This document shows positions 3,560-35,276 of a stretch of 64,000 nucleotides of DNA, one piece after another. A program made the translations under genes and the position numbers. The stretch's first letter is position 1. The number at the start of each line of letters is the position of its first letter. Under the pieces are notes generated by a model that saw only the letters and a program-made list of their open reading frames with translations, was not told the origin of the DNA and ran no database searches. Origin of the DNA: an uncultured Muribaculaceae bacterium (lineage in GTDB: Bacteria; Bacillota_I; Bacilli_A; RF39; UBA660); the NCBI GenBank assembly GCA_964473455.1, contig CAYYQX010000002.1:45086-109085 (forward strand), written 5' to 3'.

Positions 3560-3569
3560 GGAGGAAGTT

Positions 3570-4827: not shown

Positions 4828-5158
4828 TATTTATATATTGATTTATATTTTTGGTGTACTTATTTCATCTATTGCGCAAATTATGCTGAAAAAAGCTGCT
4901 CAAGTAAGCTATGCCAATAAAATAAAAGAATATCTTAATTCAAAAACAATATTTGCTTATTTTATATTTTTTCTTGCAACTGTAGTTACTGTTTTCGCTT
5001 ATAAAGGTATTCCACTGATTTATGGGGCTCTTATAGGTACTAGTGAGTATATTTTTGTAACAGTTTTTAGTGGTTTATTTTTAAAAGAAAAAATAAGTAA
5101 GAAAAAAGTATTAGGTCTTGTTTTAATTATAGTAGGAATTATTTTTTTTGTATTATAA
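4820..5158 (+). CDS. small 4-TM SMR/EamA-like membrane protein (ArnF-like partner subunit)
   Basis: 112 aa, four TM helices. Overlaps the previous gene by 8 nt, which suggests translational coupling. Confidence 0.45.
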   Translation: MNSIYILIYIFGVLISSIAQIMLKKAAQVSYANKIKEYLNSKTIFAYFIFFLATVVTVFAYKGIPLIYGALIGTSEYIFVTVFSGLFLKEKISKKKVLGLVLIIVGIIFFVL

Positions 5159-5866: not shown

Positions 5867-7084
5867 ATGAAAATATTATTTATATCGTCTGATTATCCAA
5901 GGCCTGAAAAGAGTTCAAACATATATACTGATTTAGCCAAAGAGATTAATAATCAGAACCATATTATAAAGGTAGTTGTAACAGAAGAAAAGAAAAACAT
6001 TGCAAAAACTACCTTGTTTGAAGAAAATGGGGTCCCTGTATTAAGAGTTAAAACCGGCAATATTTATGAAGTAGGTTTTACTGAAAAAACTATTACTTTT
6101 TTAACTTTAAGTAGGAATTTAATTAACGGAATAAATAAATATTTTTCAGGTGAGACATTTGATTTGATTTTGTTTCAGTCACCTCCAGTAACCTTTAATA
6201 AAGTTATTAAGTGGGCAACGAAGAAGTATAACTGTAAGTCTTATTTAATACTAAAGGATATTTTCCCTCAAAACGGAGTTGATATTGGGTTATATTCAAA
6301 ATTAAGCCCTATATATTTATATTTTAGAAATCAAGAAAAAGCTTTATATAAAATTAGTGATTATATAGGGTGTATGTCTAAAGGAAATGTCGATTATATA
6401 CTAGCACACAACAATCTTAAAAAAGAAAAAGTGGAGATATTTCCAAATTGTGAGATTATTGAAAAAATGCCAACGCTTTCATTAATAAATAAAAACAAGA
6501 TACGAAAGAAATATGGTTTAGAAAAAAATGATGTTGTGGCTATATTTGGTGGTAATTTTGGTAAACCACAAGGACTTGATTTTTTATTGGAAATTTTAAA
6601 TGAATACAAGTATTCTAAAAATATTAAATTTGTTTTAATTGGGCGAGGTACAGAAAAACATAGAATATTTAGTATAATAAAGGAAAAAAATTATAAAAAC
6701 GTCTTTACTTTTAATTTTATTCCAAGAAAAGATTATGATACGTTAACTCTTTCTTGTGATGTTGGGCTGATCTTTTTAGATAAAAGATTTACTATTCCTA
6801 ATTTTCCATCTAAAACGCTCTCTTACTTTAAAAATTCCTTACCAATTATGGCTTCTATTGATAAAAATACAGATTATAGTAGAATGCTTGAAGCAACAGA
6901 CGCTGGGTTTTGGGTTGAAAATGGTGATTTAAAAGCGTTTAAAAATAAATTTAAACTATTAACAGGGGATGCGAAATTAAGAACGAAAATGGGGAAGAAT
7001 GGTCGAAATTATTATGAAAAAGAATGTGATGTTAAAAAGTTTGTCAAATTATTAGAAAAATGTGTGGAGGATAACAATGTTTAA
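5867..7084 (+). CDS. GT4-family glycosyltransferase (WbuB-like)
   Basis: 405 aa with a GT-B C-terminal domain and conserved acidic residues. Lies directly upstream of the FnlA/FnlB-like genes, as is typical for L-FucNAc/L-PneNAc transferases. Confidence 0.55.
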   Translation: MKILFISSDYPRPEKSSNIYTDLAKEINNQNHIIKVVVTEEKKNIAKTTLFEENGVPVLRVKTGNIYEVGFTEKTITFLTLSRNLINGINKYFSGETFDLILFQSPPVTFNKVIKWATKKYNCKSYLILKDIFPQNGVDIGLYSKLSPIYLYFRNQEKALYKISDYIGCMSKGNVDYILAHNNLKKEKVEIFPNCEIIEKMPTLSLINKNKIRKKYGLEKNDVVAIFGGNFGKPQGLDFLLEILNEYKYSKNIKFVLIGRGTEKHRIFSIIKEKNYKNVFTFNFIPRKDYDTLTLSCDVGLIFLDKRFTIPNFPSKTLSYFKNSLPIMASIDKNTDYSRMLEATDAGFWVENGDLKAFKNKFKLLTGDAKLRTKMGKNGRNYYEKECDVKKFVKLLEKCVEDNNV

Positions 7085-8072
7085 AGATAAAGTTTTATTA
7101 ATTACTGGAGGTACTGGTTCTTTTGGAAACGCTGTATTAGAAAAATTCTTAGATTCTGATATAAAAGAAATTAGAATCTTTTCAAGAGACGAGAAAAAAC
7201 AAGATGATATGAGAAAGAAGTATAACAACGCTAAAATAAAGTTTTATATTGGTGATGTTAGAGATTATAACAGTATTGATGATGCGATGGATGGGGTTAA
7301 TTTAGTTTTTCACGCGGCAGCTTTAAAACAGGTTCCATCTTGTGAATTTTTTCCTATTGAAGCCGTTAAAACGAACGTTCTTGGAACTAATAATGTGCTT
7401 GAAGCTGCAATTAACCATAATGTTGAAAAGGTAATTGTTTTAAGTACTGATAAAGCTGCTTATCCAATTAATGCGATGGGTATGAGTAAAGCTTTAATGG
7501 AAAAGGTAGCTGTTGCTAAAGGTAGAAACTTAAAGACTGGCTCTACTGTAATTTGTCGTACAAGATATGGCAATGTAATGGCTAGTAGAGGATCTGTTAT
7601 ACCTTTGTTTTTAGAACAAATCAAAGAAGGTAAAGATTTAACTATAACTAACCCTAATATGACTAGATTTATGATGACTTTGGAAGATGCGGTTAATTTA
7701 GTAGTGTATGCTTTTAAGAATGGTCAACAAGGAGACTTGTTTGTTCAAAAAGCTCCTGCGGCTACTGTTCAAGTTTTAGCAGAAGCAATGAAGAAATTAA
7801 CAAACAGTAATGTTGGGATTAAAAACATTGGAACAAGGCATGGTGAAAAGTTATATGAAGTATTAGTTACTAAAGAAGAGATGGCAACAGCTATTGATCT
7901 TGGAGAATACTTTAGAGTTCCAGCTGATAATAGAGACCTTAATTACGCTAAATATGAATCAAAAGGTAATACAAAACTTGAAGATTTTATTGAATATAAT
8001 TCTGATAATACAAAAAGACTTGATGTTGATGGAATGATAGATTTATTAAAAAAATTAGATTTATTTAAGTAG
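7062..8072 (+). CDS. UDP-N-acetylglucosamine 4,6-dehydratase/5-epimerase (FnlA/CapE/WbjB family)
   Basis: 336 aa. Begins KVLLITGGTGSFGNAV. The internal ATG at 7077 is the probable true start. SDR extended fold with a CapE-type active-site region. Confidence 0.75.
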   Translation: MWRITMFKDKVLLITGGTGSFGNAVLEKFLDSDIKEIRIFSRDEKKQDDMRKKYNNAKIKFYIGDVRDYNSIDDAMDGVNLVFHAAALKQVPSCEFFPIEAVKTNVLGTNNVLEAAINHNVEKVIVLSTDKAAYPINAMGMSKALMEKVAVAKGRNLKTGSTVICRTRYGNVMASRGSVIPLFLEQIKEGKDLTITNPNMTRFMMTLEDAVNLVVYAFKNGQQGDLFVQKAPAATVQVLAEAMKKLTNSNVGIKNIGTRHGEKLYEVLVTKEEMATAIDLGEYFRVPADNRDLNYAKYESKGNTKLEDFIEYNSDNTKRLDVDGMIDLLKKLDLFK

Positions 8073-8079
8073 GTGAATT

Positions 8080-9183
8080 ATGAAGGTATTAATAACTGGT
8101 TCAGACGGATTTATTGGTAAGAATTTACTTGTCCATTTAAGAGAAATAAAAGAAGTTGAAATAGTTACTTTTGATGTTAAGGATGATTTTTCTAAGATTG
8201 AAAAAAGTATTGATTCGATTGATTTTATTTTTCATTTTGCCGGTGTTAATAGACCTGTTAGTGTAGAGGATTTTTATAAAGGTAATACTGATTTAACTAA
8301 ACAAATAGTAGATTTAATAAAGGGTAAGAATATACCACTATTAATTACTTCTAGTATTCAAGCTATCAAGGATAATGATTATGGTAAGAGTAAAAAGTTA
8401 GCAGAAGATTATATAAAGGCTAATTTAACTAATTATTATATTTATCGACTTCATAATGTTTTTGGTAAGTGGTGTCGCCCTAACTATAATTCAGTCATTG
8501 CAACTTTTTGTTATAATATTGCCAATAATTTAGAGATAAAAGTTGATAATAGAGAAACTGAAATAACCTTTGTTTATATTGATGACATTATGAATGAATT
8601 TATTAATGTTTTAAATGGTAAAAAATCTGATGAGGTAATAGATGATATTTGTTATATTAATCCAAAATATAGTGTTACTTTAGGGTATATAGCTGATAAA
8701 TTGCATGAGTTTAATGATTGTTTAAATTCAATTTATGTTCCAAATACTGGTAATGATTTTGTTAAAAAATTATATTCTACTTTTATTAGTTATTTACCAA
8801 TGGATAGATTAGTTACACAAGCTGAGAAAAAAGAAGATGAAAGAGGATTCTTTGTTGAGTTAGTTAGAACAAAGGACAGTGGTCAATTTTCTATATCTTA
8901 TAGTAAAGCAGGGGTTTCTAGGGGTGATCATTATCACCACACTAAATCAGAAAGATTTATGGTTGTTAAAGGTAAAGCTAAAATTAGTTTTTCTTCTGCA
9001 ATTACTAATGATAAGTATTCGTTTATAGTAGATGATAAAGTAATTAAGATTATTACTATTCCTGTTGGATATAGTCATAAAATAGAAAATATTGGCAAGA
9101 AAGAACTTGTTTTAGCGTTGTGGTGTAATGAAGTGTTTGATATAAATAGGCCTGATACATATTATATGAAAGTAGTGGAGTAA
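8080..9183 (+). CDS. Cap5F/FnlB/WbjC-like UDP-2-acetamido-2,6-dideoxy-hexose reductase (SDR N-domain plus C-terminal cupin)
   Basis: 367 aa. N-terminal MKVLITGSDGFIGKNL Rossmann motif. C-terminal roughly 100 aa is cupin-like with an HYHH motif. Size and architecture match Cap5F. Confidence 0.6.
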   Translation: MKVLITGSDGFIGKNLLVHLREIKEVEIVTFDVKDDFSKIEKSIDSIDFIFHFAGVNRPVSVEDFYKGNTDLTKQIVDLIKGKNIPLLITSSIQAIKDNDYGKSKKLAEDYIKANLTNYYIYRLHNVFGKWCRPNYNSVIATFCYNIANNLEIKVDNRETEITFVYIDDIMNEFINVLNGKKSDEVIDDICYINPKYSVTLGYIADKLHEFNDCLNSIYVPNTGNDFVKKLYSTFISYLPMDRLVTQAEKKEDERGFFVELVRTKDSGQFSISYSKAGVSRGDHYHHTKSERFMVVKGKAKISFSSAITNDKYSFIVDDKVIKIITIPVGYSHKIENIGKKELVLALWCNEVFDINRPDTYYMKVVE

Positions 9184-12855: not shown

Positions 12856-13728
12856 GTGAAAAATAGTGAGTTGAAAAATTTATCAAAAAGAAAAGCAGAA
12901 TTTTTAAAAGGATTACATGAGTGTGAACTAAATATATTAAAAGAAGTAACTAGAGTTTGCAAAAAACTAAATATAAAATACTATCTTGATGGTGGTACAA
13001 TGTTAGGTGCAATTAGACATCAAGGATTTATTCCATGGGATGATGATATTGATGTTTTCATGCTAAGAGAGGATTACGAGAGGTTTTTAATAGAAGCCCC
13101 AAAACATCTAAATAAAAAATACTTTTTACAAACATATAACAGTGATAAAAATTACTTAAATTCTTTTGCAAAAATGAGGAACAGCGAAACAACTTTTATT
13201 GAAAAGACTGTAAAAAAAGTAAACTCAAATCACGGAGTATATATTGACATTTTTGTATATGATAATTATAACCCAGTACTTAGTGTTAATAACACCATAC
13301 TAAACCTATTGCTGAAATGGTATAACTTAAAATTATACAAATATTACTGTGTATCAACACGAAAACGAAAAATAAAAAGTGCAATATCTAAAACTTTGTT
13401 CTTCTATTTCAAATCTATCACAAAACAACTCATAAAAAAAGATAAAATTATTCAATATTATAAAAATAAACCCTGTAAATATGTAAGAAGTTATTCTTCA
13501 ACTTATTCATTAGAAAGAGCTATCTTTAAAAAAGAATGGCTTGGAAAAGGCAAACTAGTAAAATTTGAAGATATTGAAGCATACGTTCCTGAAAATTATG
13601 ATATGTGGTTAAAAACCATATATGGTGATTATATGAAATTACCTCCAAAAGAAAAAAGAAAACCTCATCATGATTGTGAAATGATTGATCTAAACAAATC
13701 ATATTTGGAATATAAAAAAGGAAAGTGA
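12856..13728 (+). CDS. LicD-family phosphotransferase (polyol-phosphate or phosphocholine transferase)
   Basis: 290 aa. Canonical LicD motif YYLDGGTMLGAIRHQGFIPWDDDIDVFM. The gene ends with a TGA stop, which confirms genetic code 11. Confidence 0.8.
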   Translation: MKNSELKNLSKRKAEFLKGLHECELNILKEVTRVCKKLNIKYYLDGGTMLGAIRHQGFIPWDDDIDVFMLREDYERFLIEAPKHLNKKYFLQTYNSDKNYLNSFAKMRNSETTFIEKTVKKVNSNHGVYIDIFVYDNYNPVLSVNNTILNLLLKWYNLKLYKYYCVSTRKRKIKSAISKTLFFYFKSITKQLIKKDKIIQYYKNKPCKYVRSYSSTYSLERAIFKKEWLGKGKLVKFEDIEAYVPENYDMWLKTIYGDYMKLPPKEKRKPHHDCEMIDLNKSYLEYKKGK

Positions 13729-13737
13729 GAAATAAGT

Positions 13738-14463
13738 ATGAATATAGCAATTATAACTGCTGGTGGGATTGGGGCAAGAATGGGCAACAAAACGCCAAAA
13801 CAATTTATAAAAATAAATAAAAAACCAATAATCGTTTATACACTAGAAAGATTTGAAAATAATGATAATATTGATAAAATTATATTAGTTTGTTTAAAAA
13901 AATGGCAAAAAAAACTAGAAAAATTTACTATAGATTATAACATTACAAAAGTGTGCTCAATAATAGAAGGCGGGGAAACTAACTTTGAAAGTATAAAAAA
14001 AGGTGTAATGGAAGCACATAGCAAATTTAAAGATGATGATATTGTTATAATGCACGATGGTATTAGGCCAAATGTCTCAGGCGAAGTCATAGATGACTCG
14101 CTTAGAGTTTGCAAAGAATTTGGGAATAGCACATCAGTAATACAATGTGTTGAAGTAATGATGCTTACAGAAGATAAAATATGTTCTACAAGTCATGTTC
14201 ATAGAGATAAGCTAATGAGAGCGCAAACTCCACAAGCTTTCCATATTGGAGAACTTATTGAATTATACAAAGAGGCAGATAAAAAAGGAATTACTAATTC
14301 TACTTCGTTGTGCTCACTGTTTGTGGAACTAGGAAGAAAAGTATATTTATCAAAAGGATCAGAAGCAAATATAAAATTAACAGTCCCAGTAGATATAGAA
14401 ATACTTAAAACACTATTAAAAAATGAAAGAAGAGTTAATAATGCTAGAAAAAATGAAAAATAA
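13738..14463 (+). CDS. tarI: ribitol-5-phosphate cytidylyltransferase-like (TarI/IspD family, CDP-polyol synthase)
   Basis: 241 aa. N-terminus IAIITAGGIGARMGN..PKQF...KPII matches the TarI/IspD signature closely (TarI: AGGIGSRMGN..PKQF..KPIL). Confidence 0.75.
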   Translation: MNIAIITAGGIGARMGNKTPKQFIKINKKPIIVYTLERFENNDNIDKIILVCLKKWQKKLEKFTIDYNITKVCSIIEGGETNFESIKKGVMEAHSKFKDDDIVIMHDGIRPNVSGEVIDDSLRVCKEFGNSTSVIQCVEVMMLTEDKICSTSHVHRDKLMRAQTPQAFHIGELIELYKEADKKGITNSTSLCSLFVELGRKVYLSKGSEANIKLTVPVDIEILKTLLKNERRVNNARKNEK

Positions 14464-15355
14464 AATAGTTTTTATAAGTGGTGCTGGGGGAATGATTGGA
14501 AAGTCTTTGACTGATTACTTATTGAAAAACAACGCTAAAGTAATCGCAAATACAAGAAGTCCAATGGAAACAAAAGCAATTAACCATATTCAAGATATAA
14601 CAGAGCCTTTAAATTATAAAGGAAAAATTGACTATATAATTCATTTAGGTGCATTATCAAATCCTAAAGCATTTAAAGAAAATCCAGTTGAAGTAATGAC
14701 TTCTAACTTTCTTGGCATAAAAAACTTATTAGATTACGCAAAAGTAAATAAAGAAACTAGAGTTTTGTATGTATCAAGCGGTGAAATTTATGGCATAACA
14801 GAAGAGGAATTAAAAGAAGAAGTAACAGGATACGTAGAAATATTAAATTCTAGGAGTTGTTATCCTATGAGTAAAAGGGCAAGCGAAACACTATGTATTA
14901 GCTATATGCAGGAATATGGTGTTGATGTTGTTATTGCAAGACCTTGCCATATATTTGGTATACCTACAGAACAAGATAATAGAGTATACGCTCAATTTAT
15001 AAAAAATATAGAAAATGATGAAGATATTGTTTTAAAAAGTGAAGGAAAAGATATAAGAAGCTATTGTTATGTAAAAGATTGTGTTACAGCTCTTATAACG
15101 ATTCTTTTAAAAGGTAAAAAAGGCGAAGCATATAATATAGCAAATGGTAAAATTTCAATTAAAGAATTAGCAAATATCATTGCCAAAATTGGTAATAAAA
15201 AAGTTATATATAAAATACCAACTTCAGATGAAATAAAGGTTTTTAACCCGATGAGCAACGCTTCCTTAAACTATGATAAATTAAAAAATTTAGGATGGGA
15301 GCCAAAATATACTGTTGAACAAGGATTTAGAGAAATAATAAAAAAACATAAGTAA
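14441..15355 (+). CDS. SDR-family NAD(P)-dependent oxidoreductase, putative polyol-phosphate (ribulose-5-P) reductase, like the Bcs1 reductase half
   Basis: ORF track gives 14423..15355. The internal start MLEKMKNKIVFISGAGGMIGKSL is probably the true start. Extended SDR fold. Overlaps the end of the TarI-like gene, suggesting an operon for CDP-polyol synthesis. Confidence 0.45.
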   Translation: MLEKMKNKIVFISGAGGMIGKSLTDYLLKNNAKVIANTRSPMETKAINHIQDITEPLNYKGKIDYIIHLGALSNPKAFKENPVEVMTSNFLGIKNLLDYAKVNKETRVLYVSSGEIYGITEEELKEEVTGYVEILNSRSCYPMSKRASETLCISYMQEYGVDVVIARPCHIFGIPTEQDNRVYAQFIKNIENDEDIVLKSEGKDIRSYCYVKDCVTALITILLKGKKGEAYNIANGKISIKELANIIAKIGNKKVIYKIPTSDEIKVFNPMSNASLNYDKLKNLGWEPKYTVEQGFREIIKKHK

Positions 15356-15369: not shown

Positions 15370-17160
15370 TTATTGACTATTATCCGCAACATACTTAGAT
15401 ATATACAAAATAATACTCTTATTACTAATCTTATCCAATCTTTTATTTGCTGGAATAGATTGACCTATAATAGTTCCATTAGAAGAACTACTTTCCTTAG
15501 ATACAAACGAAACACTAAATCCATTATTAGTAAGCCAGTTTTTCGCACTTACTTGCGTATATGACGTAAAATTAGGCAAAACACTATAAAATGTATTACT
15601 AGTAAACTCTGATCCAATAATAGGCTTTAAATAGGTATTATTAGGACTATAGTTAAATGAAGTAGAGTAATTGTTTGTAATGCCTAAATTATTCTTCATC
15701 GAACTTACTACCGCATTAACACTGTCTTTATTTAAAATATAATCCCATAATACTAATTGCATATTCTCATCATATATCATTTGACCATTACCTTGAAGAA
15801 GTAGGGAATCAATATTTACTTCATTATTATTAGTAATTAATATTTCTTTAGCTAAATCATAAAACGATAATATCTGATTAGTAGTAAAATTGGTATCAAC
15901 ATTATTTGCTATAGCCTCTAATACCTTAGATACTTGATCAACACTATTAACTGTTTTTAACTTTTCAATAATTGAATTGATTAATAATTGTTGATTTTGT
16001 TCACGATCTAAATCTCCATTAGTTAAACTATTTCTATTTCTAGCAAGCACTAAAGCTTGCTCACCGTTTAATGTTTGAAGGCCTTTATTAATACAAACAG
16101 CAGTACTACTACGATCACTGTCTCCTGTACACAAATATTGAGGAACATCAACTGTAACGCCACCTAACGCATTAACAAGTTTAACAACGCCTTTAAAATT
16201 AATCATTACGTAATAATCAACAGGAATATCAAAGTAAGCTTCTATTGTATCAATAGTACAACTAGCTCCATACCAAGAAGAGTGGGTGATTTTGTTTTCT
16301 ATTTTATCTTCAAAACAAGTAATAGGAACATAACTATCTCTTGGAATACTAACCATTGTAATATTTGAAGTATTAGGGTTTATTGTAAGTAAAATTAACG
16401 AGTCACCATTAGCTGTACTACTGTTGATACCTTCGCTTTCTGAATCAACACCAATTAGTAATATACTAAAAGGATCATTGATATCTTTGTTAGAAATTAT
16501 TTCTTCTTTTTCTAATTCTTTTGTTTTTGTAACAATAGTTTTAGTTTCTGAACTAATGTTAATAAATTTTTCAATTGAAGTAAACATAGAAATATAGTTA
16601 CTAGTAATGAATATTGCTTCAACTTCTTTATCATATAAAGCTGATAATAAAGTCGCAAAACTACTATATGTTTGTAAATCTAAGTTAAGATTATTTTCAG
16701 TTATTATTTCATTACTAATAACATATCCTTCAATAGAAGTGACATCATCTATAATACCGACCTTTTTAGTATTAATGTTTTCTAGAGTTACTGTAGAATC
16801 AGATAGAACAACTAAGCTAGTAGAGTAGGTTGAAAAGTTTTTACTAACTTCATCAATAGATGAATATACTTTATTTATAATTAAACTTCCAAAAACATTT
16901 ACGACGATATAAACAATTAGAAAAAGCATAAAAATAGTATATCCAGTAAATTTCTGCTTCTTTTTTAAAAAGTTAATCATTTCTGTAAATATTAAAACAT
17001 CTAGTGCTAGTAAAAGACCCATACCTAGATATCTACCTGTATTTTCAATACCATTTAGTAAAAATACATTATATAATAAATAGGCATTAGTAACTAAAGC
17101 TACTATTGATAATAAAAAAATGTTTAATTTTTTAAAAACCACTTTTTTTTGCTTTTTCAT
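15370..17160 (-). CDS. LytR-CpsA-Psr (LCP) family glycopolymer-to-peptidoglycan ligase with a C-terminal PASTA-like domain
   Basis: 596 aa. N-terminal TM helices. LCP core motif DSLILLTINPNTSNITMVSIPRDSYVPI. The C-terminal roughly 70 aa (AKNWLTNNGFSVSF...GTIIGQSIPANKRL...ILYIS) fits a PASTA fold. Confidence 0.7.
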   Translation of the reverse strand: MKKQKKVVFKKLNIFLLSIVALVTNAYLLYNVFLLNGIENTGRYLGMGLLLALDVLIFTEMINFLKKKQKFTGYTIFMLFLIVYIVVNVFGSLIINKVYSSIDEVSKNFSTYSTSLVVLSDSTVTLENINTKKVGIIDDVTSIEGYVISNEIITENNLNLDLQTYSSFATLLSALYDKEVEAIFITSNYISMFTSIEKFINISSETKTIVTKTKELEKEEIISNKDINDPFSILLIGVDSESEGINSSTANGDSLILLTINPNTSNITMVSIPRDSYVPITCFEDKIENKITHSSWYGASCTIDTIEAYFDIPVDYYVMINFKGVVKLVNALGGVTVDVPQYLCTGDSDRSSTAVCINKGLQTLNGEQALVLARNRNSLTNGDLDREQNQQLLINSIIEKLKTVNSVDQVSKVLEAIANNVDTNFTTNQILSFYDLAKEILITNNNEVNIDSLLLQGNGQMIYDENMQLVLWDYILNKDSVNAVVSSMKNNLGITNNYSTSFNYSPNNTYLKPIIGSEFTSNTFYSVLPNFTSYTQVSAKNWLTNNGFSVSFVSKESSSSNGTIIGQSIPANKRLDKISNKSIILYISKYVADNSQ

Positions 17161-17427: not shown

Positions 17428-19434
17428 ATGATGTGTTATACTAAAAATGTGATGAATATGAAAAGGTATCTCAATAAATTAAATGTGATTTCATTAATTA
17501 TTGCCATATATCTTGTTGTTGGAACAGCAACATTTTTTAGTGACAGCAGTATAAGTAGTATTTTATTTTTAATTGCTTTAATTATTCCTTTATTTTTTTT
17601 AGTTAGATTATTATTAAAATACTTATTAAAAAAAGAAATAAAATTAGAGAAGAACCCTAAAATAAATAAAAAAGAAATATTTATTTATTTTTTAGTAATC
17701 TTCTTTTCTTTTTTAATATACTATTTAGCTTTTTATCCTGGTGGCACATCACCTGATGTTTTAAATCAATGGAAACAAGTAATTACAAACTCATATAATG
17801 ATTGGCACCCCTTTATTCATACGTTGCTTTTTTTTAAACTTCCTTCCTTAATCACTCAAAATATTACTGTTACAGTCTTATTTCAAATAGTTTTTATATC
17901 AATCATTTTAACATTTACCTTATATTTGTTGAGAAAATTAGGTTTTAGCAAAAAAATAATGTTTATATTTATTATTCTATTTATGTTAAACCCAGAAAAT
18001 GGGCGAATGGCAACTATGCCTTGGAAAGATATACCATATTCTTACATGATTTTAACTTTAACCGTTATGTTGATGCACATAGTAAAAACAAATGGAGCTT
18101 GGTTAAAGGAGAATAAAAATCTAATAATGTTAGCTATCTTTTCTTTCTTAATGATCATGTTTAGACATAATGGTATATTGTGTTTCATTCCTTTATTTTT
18201 AAGTATAATTTTATTTTACAAAGAAAAAAGGAAATTAGTGTCTGTTATCTTTATTGGAATATTAGTATTTAAATTCATTTTAACAGGCCCAATATACGGC
18301 TTAATTGGAGTAGGAAACCATTCAGCAACATTTTCTGAATCAATGGGTATTCCGAATAATCAAATAGCTTACATAGTAGTAAACAACGGTTATATAACAG
18401 AAGAACAAATGAAAACTTTTAATAAATTTGGTGATGTTGATAGTTGGAAAACATATTTTCACCCAACTAGTTTCAATGATATAAAATACTACGCCATCTA
18501 TAACAGAAAATTTGCTGAAGAAAACAAAACGGAATATTTAAAATTTTATTTGGCATTAGTAAAGCAAAATACAGGCATGGCTATAAAGTCTTATATATAT
18601 GTTACAAGTCCGATATGGAGTTTAAAATATATTTCTCAAGGCACATATAAAGAAAGTTTTTTACTTGATAATTCGTTGCCTAGCAAGATATCAAAAGCTT
18701 TAAATGATAATATTAACAACTACGAAACTTGGCTTCAAAAACTAGGAATAGCTAATATCTTCTTTAGCTATGGTGCAAGTTTATTTATAATAATGTTCTC
18801 TCTATTACTAATTACTTTAAAATCTAAATTTTATTTAAAAAAACATTTACCATATATACTAGTAATATTTAATACAATAGCTATCTCTCTATTAATAACG
18901 GGCGGGGAGTTAAGATTTGTTTACTGCAACATATTATGTGTAATTCCAATAATTTTATACGGCTTAACTAATATTACTAAAACAAACGAAAACAGCGATA
19001 ATAAGACACTTTTATACACATTATTTGTTCAAAAAACAAAGAATTCTTGGTTACAATTATTTAGATATTTGTTCGTTGGCGGGATCGCAGCTGTTGTAAA
19101 TATTGGTTCTTTATATATATTTACGTCATGGTTAAATATCTACTATATAATATCAAATATCTTAGGCTTTATATTAGGCTTAATTGTAAATTATTTATTA
19201 AGCAAAGCATTCATTTTTACTGATTGTAAGGTAAATAAGAAAAAAGAATTTTTTGATTATACAGTTATTGGCATTATAGGAGTTTGTATAGATACACTAC
19301 TAATGTTTGTCTTTACGTCATGGATTGGGTTATTTTATTTAATCAGTAAAATAATTTCAACACTGTTAACCTTTATTTGGAACTTTGTTGCGAGAAAATT
19401 TATGTATAAAATATATGAAAGAAGGATAAAATGA
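17428..19434 (+). CDS. large polytopic membrane protein (GT-C-like) fused to a C-terminal GtrA-family domain
   Basis: 668 aa. The last roughly 125 aa ([22 protein letters not shown]....[12 protein letters not shown]) form a 4-TM GtrA-like module. The N-terminal roughly 540 aa have more than 10 TM helices with motifs FYPGGTSPD and NDWHP. The true start may be the internal ATG near 17455. Confidence 0.5.
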
Positions 19435-20969
19435 AAAAAGTAGTAATAATTGGGGCAGGCCCAGCTGGGTTAGCGGCAGCTTATAAACTTTTAAAAGAAG
19501 GTAAAAACAAATTTAGTGTAACAATTTTAGAAGAAACTAACGATATTGGTGGAATCTCTAAAACCGTTGAATATAAAGGCAATAGGATAGATATTGGAGG
19601 ACACCGCTTTTTTACAAAGTCAAAAGAAGTAAATGACTTTTGGAGTGAAATTTTACCCAAACAAGGCTTTCCAGCCTATGATGATAAAATATTAAATAAT
19701 AATAAAGAGTTTTTAGGTAAAAAAGATCCTGAAAAAGAAGATAATGTAATGCTTCTTAGAAATAGAGTATCTAGAATATATTACTTAAAAAAGTTTTTTG
19801 ATTATCCAATTGCGCTAAAGTTACAAACATTTAAAAACATGGGTATTAAAAATACAATTATATCTGGATTTAGTTATATTAAGTCTATGGCCATTAAAAA
19901 AGAAGAGACAAACTTGGAAAACTTTTTTACAAATCGTTTTGGTAAAAAGTTATATAGTATGTTTTTTGAAAAATATACTGAAAAGCTTTGGGGTAGACAC
20001 CCGAGAGAAATTGATGCTTCTTGGGGAGCTCAAAGAGCTAAAGGATTGTCTATTAAAGAAGTATTAAAAAATGCTTTTGGTAAAATATTAAAGAAAAAAA
20101 ATTCAACAGTTGAAACATCTTTAATTGAGCAATTTGAATATCCAAAGTATGGACCAGGACAATTATATGAAGAAGCTGCGAAGAAAATTGAGGCAATGGG
20201 TGGTGTTATTTTAAAAACACACAAAGTAATAAAAATAAATAACAAAGATAATAAAATTGTGTCTTTGGAATGTGAGAATAAAGTTACTATAACTGGAGAT
20301 ATCTTTTTAAGTTCAATGCCTATTAAAGATTTAGTTAATAATATGAATAATGTATCAAAAAACATTATTAGGATTGCTGATAAATTGCCATATAGAGATT
20401 TTATTACTGTTGGCTTATTACTTAAAAAAATAAATCTTAAAAATGAAACAAACATTAAAACACTAAATAATATTATTCCAGATAACTGGGTATATGTTCA
20501 AGATCCTAGTGTTAGAATGTGTCGTTTCCAAGTCTTTAATAATTGGTCGCCTTATTTAGTAAAAGATATTACAAAATACGTTTGGATTGGGTTAGAGTAT
20601 GTTTGTAGTGAGACTGATGATCTTTGGACTAAGACAGATGTAGAGTTTAAAAGTTTTGCAATAGATGAAATGATTAGTATGAACATTATTGATAAAAAAG
20701 ATGTTGTTGACTCACATGTTATTAAAGTAAAAAAAGCCTATCCGGCTTACTTTGATACATATAATGAATTAGATAAAGTGATAAAATATCTAAATGCTTT
20801 TGACAATTTATATTGTATTGGTAGAAACGGTCAACACCGCTATAACAATATGGATCATTCTATTTTAACTGGTTTTGTTGCCGTAGACAATATTTTGAAA
20901 AACAAGAAAGATAAAGCTAATCTTTGGCAAGTAAATGCTGAACAAGAATATCATGAGGCTAAGAAATAA
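19431..20969 (+). CDS. FAD/NAD(P)-binding flavoenzyme, UDP-galactopyranose-mutase-like (possible pyranose-furanose mutase)
   Basis: 512 aa. N-terminal [17 protein letters not shown] dinucleotide-binding motif. C-terminal [13 protein letters not shown] resembles the UGM C-terminal GRxGxYxYxxMD motif. The size is closer to eukaryote-type UGMs than to bacterial ones. Overlaps the upstream gene by 4 nt. Confidence 0.4.
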
Positions 20970-21000
20970 TCTTAGTTTTTTTGTTTATATAAAGTTTAAT

Positions 21001-21840
21001 TTATTTATTTTTTTTCAAAGTAAAACAATCACCCAAATATGGAATATCAGGGATAGATTCATATTTATTATTAACCAACATTTCAAAAAATATTTTTATA
21101 TCATTTAAAACTTTAATTTGCTCCGCTTTTTCAGCATATAATTTATTTGAAACAAAATAAATTTCCATTTCAAATATCTTATACCAAAAGCTTAATAAAA
21201 AGGCCAAACGGTCTGTATTCGTATTAATATATTTTGGGGAGTAGTCTAAACACATATTATAGAAAAAATTGCTTAGCAATGTAGAAATACTCGAAAAATT
21301 AAAACCACCAATAGAACAACAATCCACATCAACAAAATAATGATTCGAACACGCATCAATTATAATATTATCAAAACTAAAATCACCAAGAATGATTTGA
21401 TTATTGTGAATTTGTTTTAATGTTTCAGAAATATTTTTAATTATTTCTAAATACATTTCGAATGGTAGTTTTGTGTCATTTATATCAAACAAAGGGTTTG
21501 CTCCTCGTATATAAGGCATAACACAACCAACTAATATAGAATTTTTATCAATTATTTTGTGTGTTGGGATAACAACATTTGCTAGTCCGTTTTTTAAAAA
21601 TAATAGTTCAAGTTTTTGCTCTCTATTAAAGCAACCAATATCATTATATAATTTATACAAAAAGTCTCCACACACAAATAAAGCACTTTCTGAATAAGAA
21701 ACATTAGTTAAAAGTGTCAATTCTTTAAAATTAATATCTTCTAATCTTAAAACTTTCATATTTTCCCCGCTTTTATAGTGCTTATTATAAGCAAATTGTA
21801 TTAAGCTGTCAATAAAGAGTTTTTTTGAGCTAAAAAACAA
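21001..21840 (-). CDS. protein-kinase-like fold protein (choline/ethanolamine kinase or APH family, LicA-like?)
   Basis: 279 aa. Brenner-type catalytic loop ILGDFSFDNIII, with G replacing the usual H, and a downstream FVDVDCCSIGG that resembles the DxD/DFE metal-binding motif. Confidence 0.35.
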   Translation of the reverse strand: MFFSSKKLFIDSLIQFAYNKHYKSGENMKVLRLEDINFKELTLLTNVSYSESALFVCGDFLYKLYNDIGCFNREQKLELLFLKNGLANVVIPTHKIIDKNSILVGCVMPYIRGANPLFDINDTKLPFEMYLEIIKNISETLKQIHNNQIILGDFSFDNIIIDACSNHYFVDVDCCSIGGFNFSSISTLLSNFFYNMCLDYSPKYINTNTDRLAFLLSFWYKIFEMEIYFVSNKLYAEKAEQIKVLNDIKIFFEMLVNNKYESIPDIPYLGDCFTLKKNK

Positions 21841-21873
21841 ACTTTATAGTATAATACTACTAGGAAGTGACTT

Positions 21874-22929
21874 ATGAAAGTAATACCAATTATTCCATCT
21901 TTAAACCCAGATAATAAACTAATTCTTTATATAGAAGAACTAATAAAGATTGGTTTTAAAAAAATAATTATTGTCAATGATGGTAGTTCAAAAAGATATG
22001 ACAAATATTTTGAAGAGTTGAAAAGCCATAAAGAATGTATAGTACTAACACATATTAAAAACCAAGGCAAAGGAAGAGCTTTAAAAACAGCCTTTAACTA
22101 TTACTTAGAAAACTATAGTAATTACTTTGGGGTTGTGACAGCTGATGCGGATGGTCAACACAGTCCAAAAGACACTTTAAATACGGCAAAAGAACTAATT
22201 AAAAACAAAACTTCACTAATTTTAGGTGTTAGAAACTTTAATTTAAAAAATGTCCCTTTAAGGAGTAAAGTAGGGAATAAAATAACTAAAATTGTCTTTT
22301 CTATTTTTAACGGCAAAATTATTAGTGATACTCAAACTGGTCTTAGAGGAATACCAAATGATTTAATAAAAGAATATCTTAATTTAGATGGAGAGCGCTT
22401 TGAATACGAAATGAATATGCTTATTCATTCTATTATAAATAAAAAGACTATTGTTGAAGTTCCAATAGAAACAATATATATTAGAAAAAATAGGAGCTCA
22501 CACTTTAGTATCCTTTTAGATTCAATAAAAATATATAAAATGATTATAAGAGAGTTTTTTAGATTTTCTTATACTAGCTTTATGGCTTTTTTAGTAGATA
22601 TTTTATTGTTCTTTATTTCCATAAAACTTATTTTTAGTGGTCTAAATATCTCTTTAGCAATTATTCTTTCAACCATTTTAGCTAGAGTAGCATCTTCATA
22701 TGTCAATTATATTTTAACTAAAAAAGTAGTGTTTAACTGTAGTAAAAAACACAAAGAATTATTGGTAAAATATTACGGGCTTACTGTTGTTCAAACATTT
22801 ACCTCAGCTCTACTTGTAATAATAGTAACTAATATCTTTATTGACGAAACTATCAGTAAAATAGTAGTGGATTCCTTACTTTTTATAATAAGCTACAATA
22901 TTCAGAAAAAATGGATATTTAAAAAATAA
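21874..22929 (+). CDS. GT2 glycosyltransferase (DPM1/GtrB-like) fused to a C-terminal GtrA-like 4-TM domain
   Basis: 351 aa. N-terminal IIPSLNPDNK...IIIVNDGSSK and DADGQH motifs of GT-A polyprenyl-P sugar transferases. C-terminal roughly 120 aa are hydrophobic and GtrA-like (FFRFSYTSFMAFLVDILLF...). Confidence 0.7.
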   Translation: MKVIPIIPSLNPDNKLILYIEELIKIGFKKIIIVNDGSSKRYDKYFEELKSHKECIVLTHIKNQGKGRALKTAFNYYLENYSNYFGVVTADADGQHSPKDTLNTAKELIKNKTSLILGVRNFNLKNVPLRSKVGNKITKIVFSIFNGKIISDTQTGLRGIPNDLIKEYLNLDGERFEYEMNMLIHSIINKKTIVEVPIETIYIRKNRSSHFSILLDSIKIYKMIIREFFRFSYTSFMAFLVDILLFFISIKLIFSGLNISLAIILSTILARVASSYVNYILTKKVVFNCSKKHKELLVKYYGLTVVQTFTSALLVIIVTNIFIDETISKIVVDSLLFIISYNIQKKWIFKK

Positions 22930-22947: not shown

Positions 22948-23739
22948 TTGAAAGATGAACAAAATTTTATAAGACAAATTGTTAAAAATAAAAATCCTAA
23001 GTTTATTTATGGCTATAACGGAGAAGTAAGAGCTAAGTTTTTAAAAAGATTGGCGTCTTCTTTTCCAGTAATTACTGATGCAAAAAACAAAATAGGAATT
23101 GGTGTTTATATTGAAGGAAGAAGTCTTCCTATAACAAATCAAAACCTAAATCCTATAGTAAATACTTTTTATAGTCAAACGTATCTTAATTTATTAATTA
23201 TTTATAATATTTTAAATACACTTATAGAACAAATAGATAGTAAAAATTTGGAAAGTCGTTCGAAAAGCTTTCTAAAAGAAATTAATACAAAAATCAATTT
23301 ACCTCTGCACATAAATAGTTTAAATAAATTAAGAGATACCTTTAAAAAAGACTTAGATAATGTTTATGAAAAATACTGTGACTATTTAACTAAAGGTGAG
23401 TCTGCCCTTGATGAGGTTCCTTGTTTAATACCAACAGAATATTCGTTACTAGAAATCTATTTAAGCTTGTTATTAAAAATGTTAAATACTAATGCTTATT
23501 TTATTCTAATATTTGATCAACAAGAAAAGTTTTCAGACGAAACTAAAAAGGAAATTATAAATCTTACAACGTCTGAAATTATCGAATACATTTCAATAAA
23601 TATTGCTTGTGAGCCAAATGAGTGGCAAACATTTGAAGAAGACTTAAAATATAACGAGGCAATAAGTTCTTTTACGACTATTGAAATAGATGATTGCTTT
23701 AAAGATACAAAAGGAAAAGCAAAAACTCTGAATATATAA
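22948..23739 (+). CDS. hypothetical protein, paralog A of a tandem pair (degenerate AAA+/DnaC-like motifs?)
   Basis: 263 aa. Shares with the next ORF the blocks KFIYGYNGE.RA.FLK, IG.YIEG..LP, Y.NLLII.NILN..IEQ, YF.IIFDQQ and ACEPNEW.T.E. Followed by a hairpin terminator at 23740-23766. Confidence 0.5.
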   Translation: MKDEQNFIRQIVKNKNPKFIYGYNGEVRAKFLKRLASSFPVITDAKNKIGIGVYIEGRSLPITNQNLNPIVNTFYSQTYLNLLIIYNILNTLIEQIDSKNLESRSKSFLKEINTKINLPLHINSLNKLRDTFKKDLDNVYEKYCDYLTKGESALDEVPCLIPTEYSLLEIYLSLLLKMLNTNAYFILIFDQQEKFSDETKKEIINLTTSEIIEYISINIACEPNEWQTFEEDLKYNEAISSFTTIEIDDCFKDTKGKAKTLNI

Positions 23740-23766
23740 GTTCACTAAATACTAGTGAACTTTTTA
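23740..23766 (+). terminator. rho-independent terminator hairpin gttcactaaatactagtgaac followed by a T-run
   Basis: Perfect 8-bp inverted repeat immediately after the TAA stop at 23737-23739, followed by TTTTTATT. Confidence 0.6.
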
Positions 23767-23812
23767 TTAATAATTATATGTGATTTTTTTCAAATGTGAT
23801 AAAATAATATGA

Positions 23813-24625
23813 ATGACACGTAAGTTGGGGGAATTTATGGAAAGCAATCAATATTTGTATGAAAGAATAATTGGAAGAAGTAGTCATAAATTCATTTATG
23901 GCTATAACGGGGAAGAAAGAGCAAGTTTTTTAAAAAAGGCTGCCCTTGCTTATTCAATTAATGGTGAATCCAATACACCAATTGGCATTTATATTGAAGG
24001 TGAACAATTGCCTGTACCAAATAAAAGCCTTGAAAGGGAAGCTGTTGTGACTTTCTCACATCAATGCTATATCAACTTGTTAATAATTTTAAATATTTTA
24101 AATGCGATTATCGAACAAGGTGACAGACAAATTTCTAAAGACCGTTTAAAAAAGTTTTTTAATAATCTTCAAAAAGTATTTGGTTTATCTAAAGACATAA
24201 ATAATTTAAGTGCCTTAAGAGCTAGCTTAAAAAGTGAACTAGATGCTTGTTATAATAAATATGTTAAATATATAAATACAGGCAATTTACAAGAATATCT
24301 TGCCCAACCAACAACTAAATATGTAATACTAGATATATACTTAAGACATTTTAAAATTCTTTTAAATACTGATTCATACTTTGCTATAATCTTTGATCAG
24401 CAAACTATGTTTTCTACTTTAACCCAAAAAACAATTAATAGCCTTATTGGTCACAGAAATAATAGTGATATTGCCATTAATGTTGCTTGTGAACCAAATG
24501 AATGGGAAACACTAGAAGGACTGAATAATAATTTTATTAACGCTATGCATGATTTTGATTATGTTAAGTTAGATGCTTGTTATCAAGAAACCGTTAATGG
24601 AGCCAAAAGACGTACATTAAAATAA
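23813..24625 (+). CDS. hypothetical protein, paralog B of the tandem pair
   Basis: 270 aa. Colinear similarity to 22948..23739 across the whole length (see the motifs listed for paralog A). Confidence 0.5.
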   Translation: MTRKLGEFMESNQYLYERIIGRSSHKFIYGYNGEERASFLKKAALAYSINGESNTPIGIYIEGEQLPVPNKSLEREAVVTFSHQCYINLLIILNILNAIIEQGDRQISKDRLKKFFNNLQKVFGLSKDINNLSALRASLKSELDACYNKYVKYINTGNLQEYLAQPTTKYVILDIYLRHFKILLNTDSYFAIIFDQQTMFSTLTQKTINSLIGHRNNSDIAINVACEPNEWETLEGLNNNFINAMHDFDYVKLDACYQETVNGAKRRTLK

Positions 24626-33096: not shown

Positions 33097-34305
33097 TTAA
33101 TCGTTCTTTTTTGTTATATTATCATAAATACTTTTTAATGTTTGTTCATATTTATTATCTTTTGGAGCATAGTATTTAACTCCTTTTAAATTTGTAGGCA
33201 AATATTCTTGTTTAACATAACTATTTTTATAGTTATGTGGGTAAAGATATGTTGTACTATTTATTTTTATACTGTTTGGAATATCGCCTGTATTTCCTTT
33301 TTTAATGTCATTGATAGCTTCATTAATAGCGACGCATCCACTATTTGATTTTGGCGATAAACACATTTCAATAATAGTTACGCCAAGTGGGATAACAGCT
33401 TCTGGAAAACCAACACGCTCACAAGCATTAATACAAGCATCTATTTTAAGATTAATACTCGGGTTTGCAAGGCCAATATCTTCATAACCAATAACAGTCA
33501 TTCTTCGGTATATACTTTCATAATCTTCCATTTCTAGTAGTCTTGCAAGATAGTGAAGGGAAGCATTCACATCACTTCCTCTAATAGATTTTTGAAAAGC
33601 CGACAATAAATTATAATGATCACTTTCGTTTTTGTCGCCTAACATACTAGGTTTATTATTAATGTTTTTTAGAACGTCTAAAGTAATATTAAAGTCACTT
33701 GTCGAATAATACGCAATTTCAAGCATATTATAGGCAAATCTTAAATCGCCATTGGCCAGTTTAGCAATATATTTTATACATGCTTTATTAATCTTTATAT
33801 CTTTTAATTCGCCACTTTTTACAGCTCTATTAAGTCCTTCTTCTATTTCTTCTTCAGTTAATTCTTTTAATTCAAATATTTGACATCTACTTCTAATCGC
33901 AGGATTAATTTTATGAAAAGGATTAGAAGAAGTTAAGCCAATTAAAGTAATTAAACCACTTTCTAAGTAGGGTAGAAGTAAGTCTTGTTTATCTTTGTTC
34001 AAACGATGTATTTCATCCATTATAACAATAAGACCGTTATACATTTTTGCTTCTTCAACAACAATATCAAAGTCTTTCTTATTATTAATTACAGCATTTA
34101 AAAATTTATGTCTTAAATTTAATTCGCCAATAATGGCGTAAGCAATTGTAGTTTTTCCAATGCCGGCTTTCCCATACAAAATCATCGAAAATAGTCGTTT
34201 GTTTTTAACCATGTTTCTAATAACTTTATTTTCACCTAAAAGATGTTTTTGACCAATTACGTCATCAATTTTATTTGGTCTTAATTTTATAGCTAAAAGT
34301 TCCAT
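33097..34305 (-). CDS. rarA: replication-associated recombination protein A (RarA/MgsA AAA+ ATPase)
   Basis: 402 aa. Walker A GKAGIGKTT, Walker B VIMDEIHR, and a C-terminal MgsA helical domain (HYNLLSAFQKSIRGSD). Confidence 0.8.
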   Translation of the reverse strand: MELLAIKLRPNKIDDVIGQKHLLGENKVIRNMVKNKRLFSMILYGKAGIGKTTIAYAIIGELNLRHKFLNAVINNKKDFDIVVEEAKMYNGLIVIMDEIHRLNKDKQDLLLPYLESGLITLIGLTSSNPFHKINPAIRSRCQIFELKELTEEEIEEGLNRAVKSGELKDIKINKACIKYIAKLANGDLRFAYNMLEIAYYSTSDFNITLDVLKNINNKPSMLGDKNESDHYNLLSAFQKSIRGSDVNASLHYLARLLEMEDYESIYRRMTVIGYEDIGLANPSINLKIDACINACERVGFPEAVIPLGVTIIEMCLSPKSNSGCVAINEAINDIKKGNTGDIPNSIKINSTTYLYPHNYKNSYVKQEYLPTNLKGVKYYAPKDNKYEQTLKSIYDNITKKND

Positions 34306-34373
34306 AACATCACCAATACTTATTTTAGCAGATTTATTAGTAATTTGAAAGCAAATGATGTATAATTAAGATA

Positions 34374-35276
34374 GTGAGAAATATGAAAATAATTAAATTT
34401 AAAAACGAAATTGATGACTTTTTAGACTATATTAAAATGGTTAGAATGTATAGTGAGAATACATATTTGAGTTATTATGAGGAACTTAAACCATTTAACA
34501 CCTTTTTTAACGGTAGTATTTTAAAATTAAGTGGTTTAGATATTTTAAAATATTTGGAAACAAAAGTTAAATTAAGCGGAAAGTCTCTTACTCATAGCAT
34601 TAGTGTTTTAAATGAATTATATAAATACTTTATCATGGAAGAATATCTTTTTCACAATCCAATTGATAATATAGATAGGCCTAAATTAGGGAAAAGTTTG
34701 CCTACCATCCTTAGTAAGAGGGAAGTAGAGAGTCTACTTGATATTACATTAAATAATAAGTTTGATTATCGAAATAAAGCTATGTTGGAACTGATGTATT
34801 CAACAGGCATTAGAATTAGTGAATTAATTAATATTAAGATTTTTGATGTTGATTTTGAAAATAGATATTTAAAAGTAATAGGGAAGGGGAACAAAGAAAG
34901 AGTAATACCTTTAAGTAATATTGGAATTGAATATTTAAAAATATATATTAACAATTATAGAAATTCTTTTCTAAAAGAAAGAACATCTGATTTTTTATTT
35001 TTAAATACTACCGGTAATAAGTTAACTAGGCAAGGGTTTTTTCTTATTTTAAGTAATATAGCTAAAATCAAAGGTATTAAGACTAAATTATCCCCACATA
35101 CAATAAGGCATTCTTTTGCCACTCACTTATTGGATAATGGAGCTGATCTTAGGAGTATTCAAGAGCTTTTAGGACATGCTTCTATTTCTACTACACAAAT
35201 ATATACGCATGTATCAAATAAGCATTTAAGAGATGTTTATGATAAATATCACGAAGAAGGAGAAAAAAATGATTAA
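34374..35276 (+). CDS. tyrosine recombinase XerC/XerD family
   Basis: 300 aa. Catalytic-region motifs ELMYSTGIRISEL, HTIRHSFATHLL and LLGHASISTTQIYTHV. Confidence 0.8.
   Translation: MRNMKIIKFKNEIDDFLDYIKMVRMYSENTYLSYYEELKPFNTFFNGSILKLSGLDILKYLETKVKLSGKSLTHSISVLNELYKYFIMEEYLFHNPIDNIDRPKLGKSLPTILSKREVESLLDITLNNKFDYRNKAMLELMYSTGIRISELINIKIFDVDFENRYLKVIGKGNKERVIPLSNIGIEYLKIYINNYRNSFLKERTSDFLFLNTTGNKLTRQGFFLILSNIAKIKGIKTKLSPHTIRHSFATHLLDNGADLRSIQELLGHASISTTQIYTHVSNKHLRDVYDKYHEEGEKND

Follow-up and report, generated by a model that had tools for sequence, protein, structure and literature searches.

A UGM-like flavoenzyme and a GT-C::GtrA fusion protein as putative core of extracytoplasmic furanose transfer in an uncultured bacterium

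In a stretch of 64,000 nt from an uncultured bacterium (contig CAYYQX010000002.1, G+C of about 26%), referred to as the window in the following, two overlapping genes encode a polytopic membrane protein of 668 aa (17428-19434, + strand) and a flavoenzyme of 512 aa (19431-20969, + strand), the second gene being translationally coupled to the first through a 4-nt overlap. On balance, we lean towards the view that this operon (17428-20969) forms the central part of a system for extracytoplasmic glycosylation, which would attach a furanose, most likely galactofuranose (Galf), to the wall polysaccharide or teichoic-acid-like polymer of the upstream gene cluster. Two further open reading frames (ORFs) follow, one for a kinase-like protein (21001-21840, - strand, 279 aa as open frame) and one for a family 2 glycosyltransferase (GT2) fused to a GtrA domain (21874-22929, + strand, 351 aa). 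An initial annotation of the window had placed all four ORFs and the overlap of the first two correctly and had regarded them as one module. Across the loci described below, only the pair of GT-C(+GtrA) protein and flavoenzyme is conserved.

Family, fold and active site of the flavoenzyme

The flavoenzyme (19431..20969) matched NF005546, the model of the NCBIfam family PRK07208.1-2 ('hypothetical protein'), over its full length with 753.7 bits at a cut-off of 418. It comprises a GxGxxG Rossmann motif at the N-terminus and no transmembrane segment, and its C-terminal motif aligns with GRFGSWRYEVGNQDHS of the UDP-galactopyranose mutase (UGM) of A. fumigatus (AfUGM). The best solved relatives by sequence were the UGMs of T. 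cruzi (E of 1.3e-17) and A. fumigatus, and the family profile aligned with the latter nearly end to end (E of 8.6e-21, positions 112-497 and the N-terminus). For the AlphaFold2 model, which showed a predicted local distance difference test (pLDDT) score of 81.5, the top 34 Foldseek matches were all eukaryotic UGMs with an E of 3e-31 and template-modelling (TM) scores of 0.72-0.81. Protoporphyrinogen oxidases came next at about 1e-22, which is about nine orders of magnitude weaker. The model is of low confidence at 125-138 and 200-230, and these segments are taken to be the counterparts of the mobile UGM flaps. With the eukaryotic UGMs (A. fumigatus and T. cruzi; PDB 3uka and 4dsg) the flavoenzyme shares the length of about 510 aa and the three-domain fold, while the identity amounts to about 20%.

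Based on the ligand residues listed for AfUGM (Table 3 in PMC3624792), which were mapped onto the window flavoenzyme through the family hidden Markov model (HMM), the conservation of the active site was judged in 38 homologues. Invariant in 38/38 were the histidine loop (G61-G62-H63 in AfUGM, G56-G57-H58 in the window), the diphosphate ligands R182, Y317, R327, Y419 and Y453 (R202, Y355, R365, Y437 and Y471), the uracil-stacking Y104 and F158 (Y125 and F178), the substrate-binding W167 (W187), R447 at the FAD pyrophosphate (R465) and the galactopyranose (Galp) contact N457 (N473). The GGH loop, the Arg/Tyr diphosphate ligands and the uracil-stacking Tyr/Phe are thereby shared with the eukaryotic UGMs, as is a C-terminal GR..RY..N.DHS motif. 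AfUGM Q458 is replaced by Met, as in bacterial UGMs, and a conserved insertion of about 30 aa, which the eukaryotic UGMs lack, follows the His loop. Sequence, fold and active-site residues agree with the UGM-like character and the C-terminal motif that had been proposed initially. Judging from the conserved residues, it is concluded that the flavoenzyme would be a pyranose-furanose mutase-type enzyme binding a nucleotide diphosphate sugar.

The comparison of 19431-20969 with UGM/Glf profiles, which the initial annotation had suggested, gave a divided result, as the bacterial Glf models failed while the similarity to eukaryotic UGMs was strong. The same annotation had named a match to amine oxidases in combination with a missing GLF domain as evidence against a mutase. 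Pfam indeed reported Amino_oxidase (E of 1.7e-15) and NAD_binding_8 for the flavoenzyme, but A. fumigatus UGM in the same scan as a control likewise gave NAD_binding_8 and Amino_oxidase and no GLF. The control sequence agrees with the PDB segments and the residue numbers of PMC3624792. Since AfUGM yields an identical Pfam result, this distinction is unable to tell UGMs of the eukaryotic type and amine oxidases apart and is invalid as a test.

The Pfam match could also be explained by an ordinary redox enzyme of the amine-oxidase/protoporphyrinogen-oxidase/CrtI superfamily instead of a mutase, acting for example in sugar oxidation or in the modification of the polyprenyl carrier. Foldseek matches with E of 1e-20 to 1e-22 to carotenoid desaturases and protoporphyrinogen oxidases and the name 'protoporphyrinogen oxidase' given to one homologue by JGI point in the same direction, and the DprE1-type oxidation of a lipid-linked sugar by a flavin enzyme beside GtrA and GT-C in mycobacteria provides a precedent (pathway summarised in PMC11194591). 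However, the sequence matches to oxidases and desaturases are mostly confined to the part that binds FAD at the N-terminus, while those to UGMs span nearly the full length. In addition, the family shows no variation in the UGM-specific His loop or in the diphosphate cage of Arg and Tyr, and the Pfam profile is that of a genuine UGM. Altogether, a redox role is considered very unlikely.

The family of the flavoenzyme is large, with at least 8000 candidates in the protein search and at least 600 matches in the genome scan, and NCBI annotates it only as 'NAD(P)/FAD-dependent oxidoreductase'. The best 120 matches listed were all 63-74% identical to the query. The relatives originate mostly from gut and rumen genomes of Clostridia or Bacilli, and the closest ones among species-representative genomes were metagenome-assembled genomes (MAGs) of uncultured Bacilli with 64% identity. 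Compared to the eukaryotic UGMs, the family is bacterial and its genes are linked to GtrA and GT-C rather than to Leloir Galf-transferases. Two homologues of 974 aa (L029, 10001-12925) and 1068 aa (L053, 10001-13207) comprise E/K-rich C-terminal tails of 450-550 aa. These tails carry low-complexity sequence only and were discarded as a clue from domain fusion, and so was a homologue of 660 aa (P0011), which turned out to be an internal duplication.

The GT-C::GtrA protein and its conserved neighbourhood

The 668-aa protein had been described as a polytopic GT-C ending in a GtrA-like module, and both parts are borne out. Its N-terminal part (aa 1-~530, 17428..19017, + strand) has the GT-C transmembrane fold and is of the DUF6020 type. 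The assignment to DUF6020 (PF19484) was obtained with 28.7 bits at a gathering threshold of 28.3 bits only when aa 1-519 were scanned alone, and was unreported in the Pfam scan of the full-length protein. PF19484 is carried by 29 of the 54 listed homologue clusters. The C-terminal GtrA-like domain with four transmembrane helices (19063..19404, + strand) matched PF04138 (GtrA_DPMS_TM) at aa 546-659 with an E of 2.7e-22 and 79.6 bits (cut-off 26.1), and the predicted model shows four long helices at 540-667. For the GtrA family, the NCBIfam model gtrA_1 gave only 24.5 bits at a cut-off of 50. A search of PDB sequences revealed no solved relative of the fusion protein. The initial view had been that such fusions are unusual, but GtrA fused to GT-C was found again in 5/83 loci of the survey and in about 17 of the 54 clusters of homologues listed.

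In the GT-C family, D201, R246, N248 and R496 are invariant, while D110 (at least 90%), H127 and K200 are near-invariant. D110 lies in the loop after the transmembrane helix 81-101 and is followed by a short helix. From the topology, which is based on the positive-inside rule only, this loop would lie on the outer side of the membrane, on which the catalytic acid of GT-C enzymes is located.

The strongest contextual argument for a furanose comes from another branch of this GT-C family. With 276 bits for profile A1, the protein P0158 is clearly homologous to the window GT-C, and it keeps nearly all conserved GT-C residues, including every invariant one. Its C-terminus is a GT2 with best matches to PpgS (94.9 bits), AglJ and Dol-P-hexose transferase. 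Next to this gene come one for a small membrane protein of the DUF2304 family and, after it, one for Glf, which matched TIGR00031 with 422.5 bits at a cut-off of 303.75. Together with the GtrA domain fused to the window GT-C, the GT-C::GT2 fusion in P0158 indirectly supports the idea that the GT-C would take its sugar from a polyprenyl-phosphate-linked donor. This set was found inside an ABC-transporter polysaccharide cluster (L100, 6001-9651; also in L101) and is a candidate for a lipid-linked Galf system in its own right. The GT-C family therefore occurs either with a fused GT2, a small membrane protein and Glf, or, as in the window, with a fused GtrA and the UGM-like flavoenzyme. The flavoenzyme belongs to the same superfamily as bacterial Glf, presumably with the same chemistry, and Glf takes an equivalent GT-C neighbourhood in L100, although the flavoenzyme is about 130 aa longer. 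The furanose idea of the initial annotation thereby gains independent support from a DUF6020 GT-C::GT2 located two genes from a bona fide Glf, and by analogy the sugar transferred in the window is probably a furanose, and probably Galf.

Nonetheless, DUF6020 as a whole is not furanose-specific. Elsewhere its members stand alone, form tandem arrays, or are found together with genes for GtrB-like GT2, GtrA and LtaS/TagF-like proteins. In one locus (L102, 1241-8755), four tandem DUF6020 paralogues of 593-627 aa adjoin a phage-type integrase.

The neighbourhood of the flavoenzyme was analyzed by ORF calling and iterative HMMs within +/-10 kb, mostly on MAG contigs. Loci from species-representative genomes (80, mostly MAGs of Clostridia and Bacilli, and a small number of Saccharibacteria, Atopobiaceae and Chloroflexi) together with loci from contig look-ups resulted in 83 non-redundant loci. 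A protein with at least seven transmembrane helices was directly adjacent to the flavoenzyme in 51/83 loci and within two genes in 57/83. A gene with a GtrA domain was located within two genes in 29/83 loci, and in 25 cases the GtrA gene cluster was the one directly upstream of the flavoenzyme. Among 64 polytopic neighbours compared with Pfam, 21 matched PMT_2 and 10 matched PMT, while DUF2079, DUF6020 and DUF6541 were found once each. Of these, PMT_2, PMT, DUF2079 and DUF6020 belong to the GT-C type. The canonical unit thus reads GtrA - flavoenzyme - variable GT-C, with the flavoenzyme in the place of GtrB in gtrABC. The window shows a rearranged form, [GT-C::GtrA] - flavoenzyme, in which GtrA stays immediately upstream of the flavoenzyme. 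Relatives with 47-74% identity (L008-L013, L099) carry the same fused pair, and their genes overlap as well.

Since the GT-C partners belong to diverse families, no common ancestry is claimed for them. A homology of the window GT-C to the 524-aa partner in the P0066 loci (BLASTP E of 0.13) or to a 617-aa protein in L094 (hhalign probability of 7%) was rejected. In some loci, such as L015, a pair of proteins of about 113 aa with 3-4 transmembrane helices, missed by the GtrA model, lies just upstream of the flavoenzyme. Such a pair may represent flippase subunits of the SMR/ArnEF type that replace GtrA.

Proposed pathway and the source of the lipid-linked donor

The activities in the following scheme are derived from the fold assignments and the residue conservation. 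Based on homology and the conserved active site, the flavoenzyme with reduced FAD would convert an NDP-hexopyranose, probably UDP-Galp, to the furanose by the UGM mechanism. In the second and weakest step, a GT2 would load the furanose onto undecaprenyl phosphate (Und-P), for which the GT2::GtrA protein at 21874-22929 is the candidate. As known for their family, the GtrA-type domains would then bring the lipid-linked sugar to the outer leaflet, where the DUF6020-type GT-C, as its fold suggests, would transfer it to the polymer outside the membrane.

The candidate for the second step comprises a GT2 catalytic domain of the polyprenyl-phosphate sugar synthase type (21874..22548, + strand; PF00535 at aa 6-134, E of 2.3e-11) and a GtrA-like domain (22561..22920, + strand; PF04138 at aa 230-349, E of 8.9e-9, 36 bits, cut-off 26.1). 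The architecture of a GT2 ending in a GtrA-like module was thus predicted correctly, whereas its supposed rarity does not hold: more than 7000 homologues exist, named 'bifunctional glycosyltransferase family 2/GtrA family protein' by NCBI. The best NCBIfam relatives, AglJ (73 bits) and PpgS (51 bits), were both below their cut-offs, and the search of PDB sequences gave no match. The order of a GT2 followed by four GtrA-like helices resembles the Pyrococcus DPMS-type GT2, on which the Pfam name GtrA_DPMS_TM is based, while the 351-aa protein stays below the cut-off of the Dol-P-hexose transferase model as well as of those for AglJ and PpgS. From its proximity, a role as donor synthase for the window GT-C is plausible but unproven.

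Several observations weigh against the proposed pathway. On the side of the flavoenzyme, the model TIGR00031 (Glf) reached only 44.9 bits at a cut-off of 303.75 and covered the N-terminus only, and PF03275 (GLF) stayed below its threshold (15 bits compared to 26.3, aa 178-198 only). The Galp contact N207 of AfUGM corresponds to I232, an invariant Ile in the family, in a loop of low model confidence, while, among the further contacts specific to galactose and uracil, Q107 corresponds to A128 (Ser/Ala in the family) and N163 to T183. Due to the replacement of N207, Q107 and N163, neither galactose nor the nucleotide is established. On the side of the donor, no polyprenyl-phosphate-Galf was reported in the literature searched. 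Any GT2 within +/-10 kb was found in only 8/83 loci, and this near-universal absence from a conserved operon is an unexplained observation. In the window, the GT2::GtrA gene is located 0.9 kb downstream of the operon, as a separate transcription unit behind a gene on the opposite strand. Homologues with 56-58% identity are found among FnlA/FnlB/Epimerase_2 genes (L092-L095) and one with 52% between a Mur ligase gene and murG in the dcw cluster, and none of these homologues lies beside a flavoenzyme.

The last points could be explained by a composite neighbourhood, in which the GT-C::GtrA protein and the flavoenzyme obtain their donor from a synthase encoded elsewhere, while GT2::GtrA serves a different decoration pathway, for example with UDP-2-acetamido-2,6-dideoxy-L-hexose from the FnlA/B-like genes at 7062-9183. 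Besides the genomic setting of the homologues, from which GT2::GtrA may carry 2-acetamido-2,6-dideoxy-L-hexose (made by FnlA/B/C) rather than a furanose, this is supported by the TATAAT (-10) box and the Shine-Dalgarno sequence of its own that precede the start of the gene, and by the gene content of L092, which with GT2, an EamA pair, GT1, FnlA and FnlB is like that of the upstream part of the window. On the other hand, GT2::GtrA is the sole candidate donor synthase near the GT-C, and in L100 the homologous GT-C carries a fused GT2 that is likewise PpgS/AglJ-like. Such a composite arrangement deserves consideration but is less likely than not. Since it concerns the second step only, it is compatible with the proposed pathway as well as with the route discussed next, and its likelihood is not to be added to theirs.

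That the conserved operon lacks a GT2 allows three possible readings, namely an unlinked synthase, an action of the flavoenzyme on existing Und-P-hexose, or a transfer of the flavin-bound sugar to Und-P by the flavoenzyme. The last two would comprise new chemistry and, even taken together, are unlikely at best. They lead to an arrangement in which the flavoenzyme docked on GtrA makes the lipid-linked furanose itself and replaces GtrB, so that no GT2 is needed. Either Und-P would resolve the flavin-sugar adduct (UDP-Galp + Und-P -> Und-P-Galf + UDP), or a pre-existing Und-P-hexopyranose would be isomerised to the furanose. This would fit the canonical order with the flavoenzyme in the position of GtrB, the 75/83 loci without a GT2 within 10 kb and the presence of a membrane-anchored GtrB-like GT2 in only 6/83. 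Furthermore, many modules lie among housekeeping genes (ruvB, queH, pth) rather than in glycan clusters. Analogous ABC-transporter clusters comprise either [GT-C::GtrA + long flavoenzyme] without a GT2 of the polyprenyl-phosphate-sugar-synthase type (L008, L099) or, as the alternative, the [GT-C::GT2 + DUF2304 + Glf] set of L100, and the insertion after the His loop sets the family apart from eukaryotic UGMs. However, neither reaction has a biochemical precedent, the conserved residues for the binding of uracil and diphosphate are those required of a plain UDP-sugar mutase, and the flavoenzyme comprises no transmembrane segment. In addition, an unlinked GT2 may lie outside the surveyed +/-10 kb of mostly MAG contigs, and the window itself has GT2::GtrA at a distance of 0.9 kb. 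This replacement of GtrB is therefore regarded as unlikely. That the PRK07208-type flavoenzyme is a 'mutase-transferase' or lipid-level mutase, which makes Und-P-galactofuranose or another Und-P-furanose together with GtrA and without a GT2, is held to be quite doubtful. If true, GtrA - flavoenzyme - GT-C would be a self-sufficient, unrecognised route of furanose to surface polymers in gut Firmicutes.

Genomic setting, related systems and significance

The acceptor in the proposed furanose pathway is suggested by the surroundings of the operon. A gene for a LytR-CpsA-Psr (LCP) ligase with a PASTA domain (15370..17160, - strand; PF03816 with E of 5.4e-43, PASTA with E of 3.1e-9) adjoins the GT-C gene in divergent orientation and marks the locus as one of wall-glycopolymer assembly. 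Further upstream, genes for GT1/GT4 enzymes, an FnlA/FnlB-like dehydratase and reductase, LicD, an IspD-type cytidylyltransferase and a short-chain dehydrogenase/reductase (SDR) are found, while replication genes lie downstream. The genes for LicD, cytidylyltransferase and SDR are consecutive (12856-15355) next to the LCP ligase and look like a CDP-alditol (ribitol-phosphate-like) phosphotransfer set. The FnlA/FnlB-like pair at 7062-9183 (Polysacc_synt_2, Polysacc_synt_C) has no Epimerase_2 partner. A separate ArnC/ArnE/ArnF/ArnT-like module at 2144-5158 comprises an ORF of 471 aa that matched nothing in Pfam, a GT2 of 309 aa that ends in two transmembrane helices, and two overlapping small ORFs of 113 and 112 aa with four transmembrane helices, whose equivalents in L092 have EamA matches.

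The gene between the operon and GT2::GtrA encodes a minimal protein with a protein-kinase-like fold (21001..21759, - strand, 252 aa, with the frame open to 21840). Since most full-length homologues align from Met-28 of the ORF and a consensus promoter precedes, ATG 21759 is most likely the start. This sigma-70-type promoter (21784..21812, - strand; TTGACA-17-TATAAT, 12/12 positions) precedes the ATG by about 25 nt and suggests a strong independent expression of the minimal kinase. About 280 representative homologues comprise 240-270 aa. The family profile matched CK2alpha with an E of 3e-8 and, at E<=0.1, over 1100 chains of kinases, while Pfam gave Pkinase in 28/60 members and, across members, also RIO1, Kdo and APH. 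K36, H118 and N131 are invariant, and D126, D144 and D146 are conserved to at least 90%, so that the family retains the catalytic Lys, the Asp and Asn of the catalytic loop and a DFG-equivalent Asp. Of the initial description as a divergent kinase-fold gene, the fold holds true, whereas the gene is divergent only from the GT2 gene and convergent with the flavoenzyme gene. Among the surveyed loci it lies beside the module in this genome only and is a lineage-specific neighbour outside the glycosylation machinery.

Downstream of GT2::GtrA, paralogous ORFs of 263 and 270 aa (22948-24625) gave no Pfam match in our scan, while the 270-aa ORF carries an ORC-CDC6-like match in a precomputed annotation. 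The pair is closely followed by genes of the DnaB_2 (DnaB/DnaD-type replication initiation) and DnaI-like kinds. Within about 34000-37000, a peak of the cumulative GC skew and a change of gene orientation from + to - were seen near 36 kb, next to a gene for a XerC/D-type recombinase (34374-35276), and the region looks like a replication terminus.

In the literature searched, nothing was found on the PRK07208 flavoenzyme family or on DUF6020, and wider searches brought up only gtr, pentofuranose and mycobacterial systems as the nearest described ones. A paper on an Actinoplanes GtrA cluster was unrelated. Systems of the GtrABC or CsbB-GtcA-YfhO type act in phage O-antigen glucosylation and in the glycosylation of lipoteichoic and wall teichoic acids in Bacillus and Listeria. 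The window shares with them a small GtrA-family membrane module, a locus-variable polytopic GT-C and a cell-wall polymer locus, and its relatives show the order GtrA - X - GT-C known from gtrA-gtrB-gtrC. Contrary to GtrABC, the middle gene encodes a UGM-like flavoenzyme instead of a GT2, which is usually absent nearby, and in the window GtrA is fused to a GT-C of the DUF6020 and not of the YfhO/GtrC type.

The combination of a polyprenyl-phosphate furanose donor and a GT-C outside the membrane is described for the three-component pentofuranose systems (Kelly et al. 2024, PMC11127046) and for the mycobacterial arabinofuranose pathway Rv3789(GtrA)-DprE1-DprE2-AftA (PMC11194591, commentary). The donors of these systems originate from phosphoribosyl pyrophosphate (PRPP) via a UbiA-like synthase. 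As in these pathways, a furanose would be added in the window to the finished glycan outside the membrane by a GT-C. In contrast, the module contains no PRPP transferase, and its flavoenzyme shows a mutase-type GR2 fold. In mycobacteria, a flavoenzyme gene lies between those for GtrA and GT-C, and DprE1 is a VAO-type oxidase working with a reductase. Altogether, flavoenzyme, GtrA and GT-C probably represent a three-component glycosylation system of a variant kind that is as yet uncharacterised.

Mammals lack galactofuranose, which is immunogenic and serves as a drug and vaccine target. To our knowledge, all known bacterial Galf incorporation proceeds via UDP-Galf and cytoplasmic Leloir transferases, while a lipid-linked furanose donor for GT-C enzymes acting outside the membrane has been demonstrated for the pentofuranoses arabinofuranose (Araf), ribofuranose (Ribf) and xylofuranose (Xylf). 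The missing GT2 poses a sharp mechanistic question that is answerable by simple reconstitution. If the flavoenzyme were assigned a mutase role in conjunction with GtrA and GT-C, thousands of genes would receive a new annotation, and furanoside epitopes would be predicted on the cell walls of commensals.

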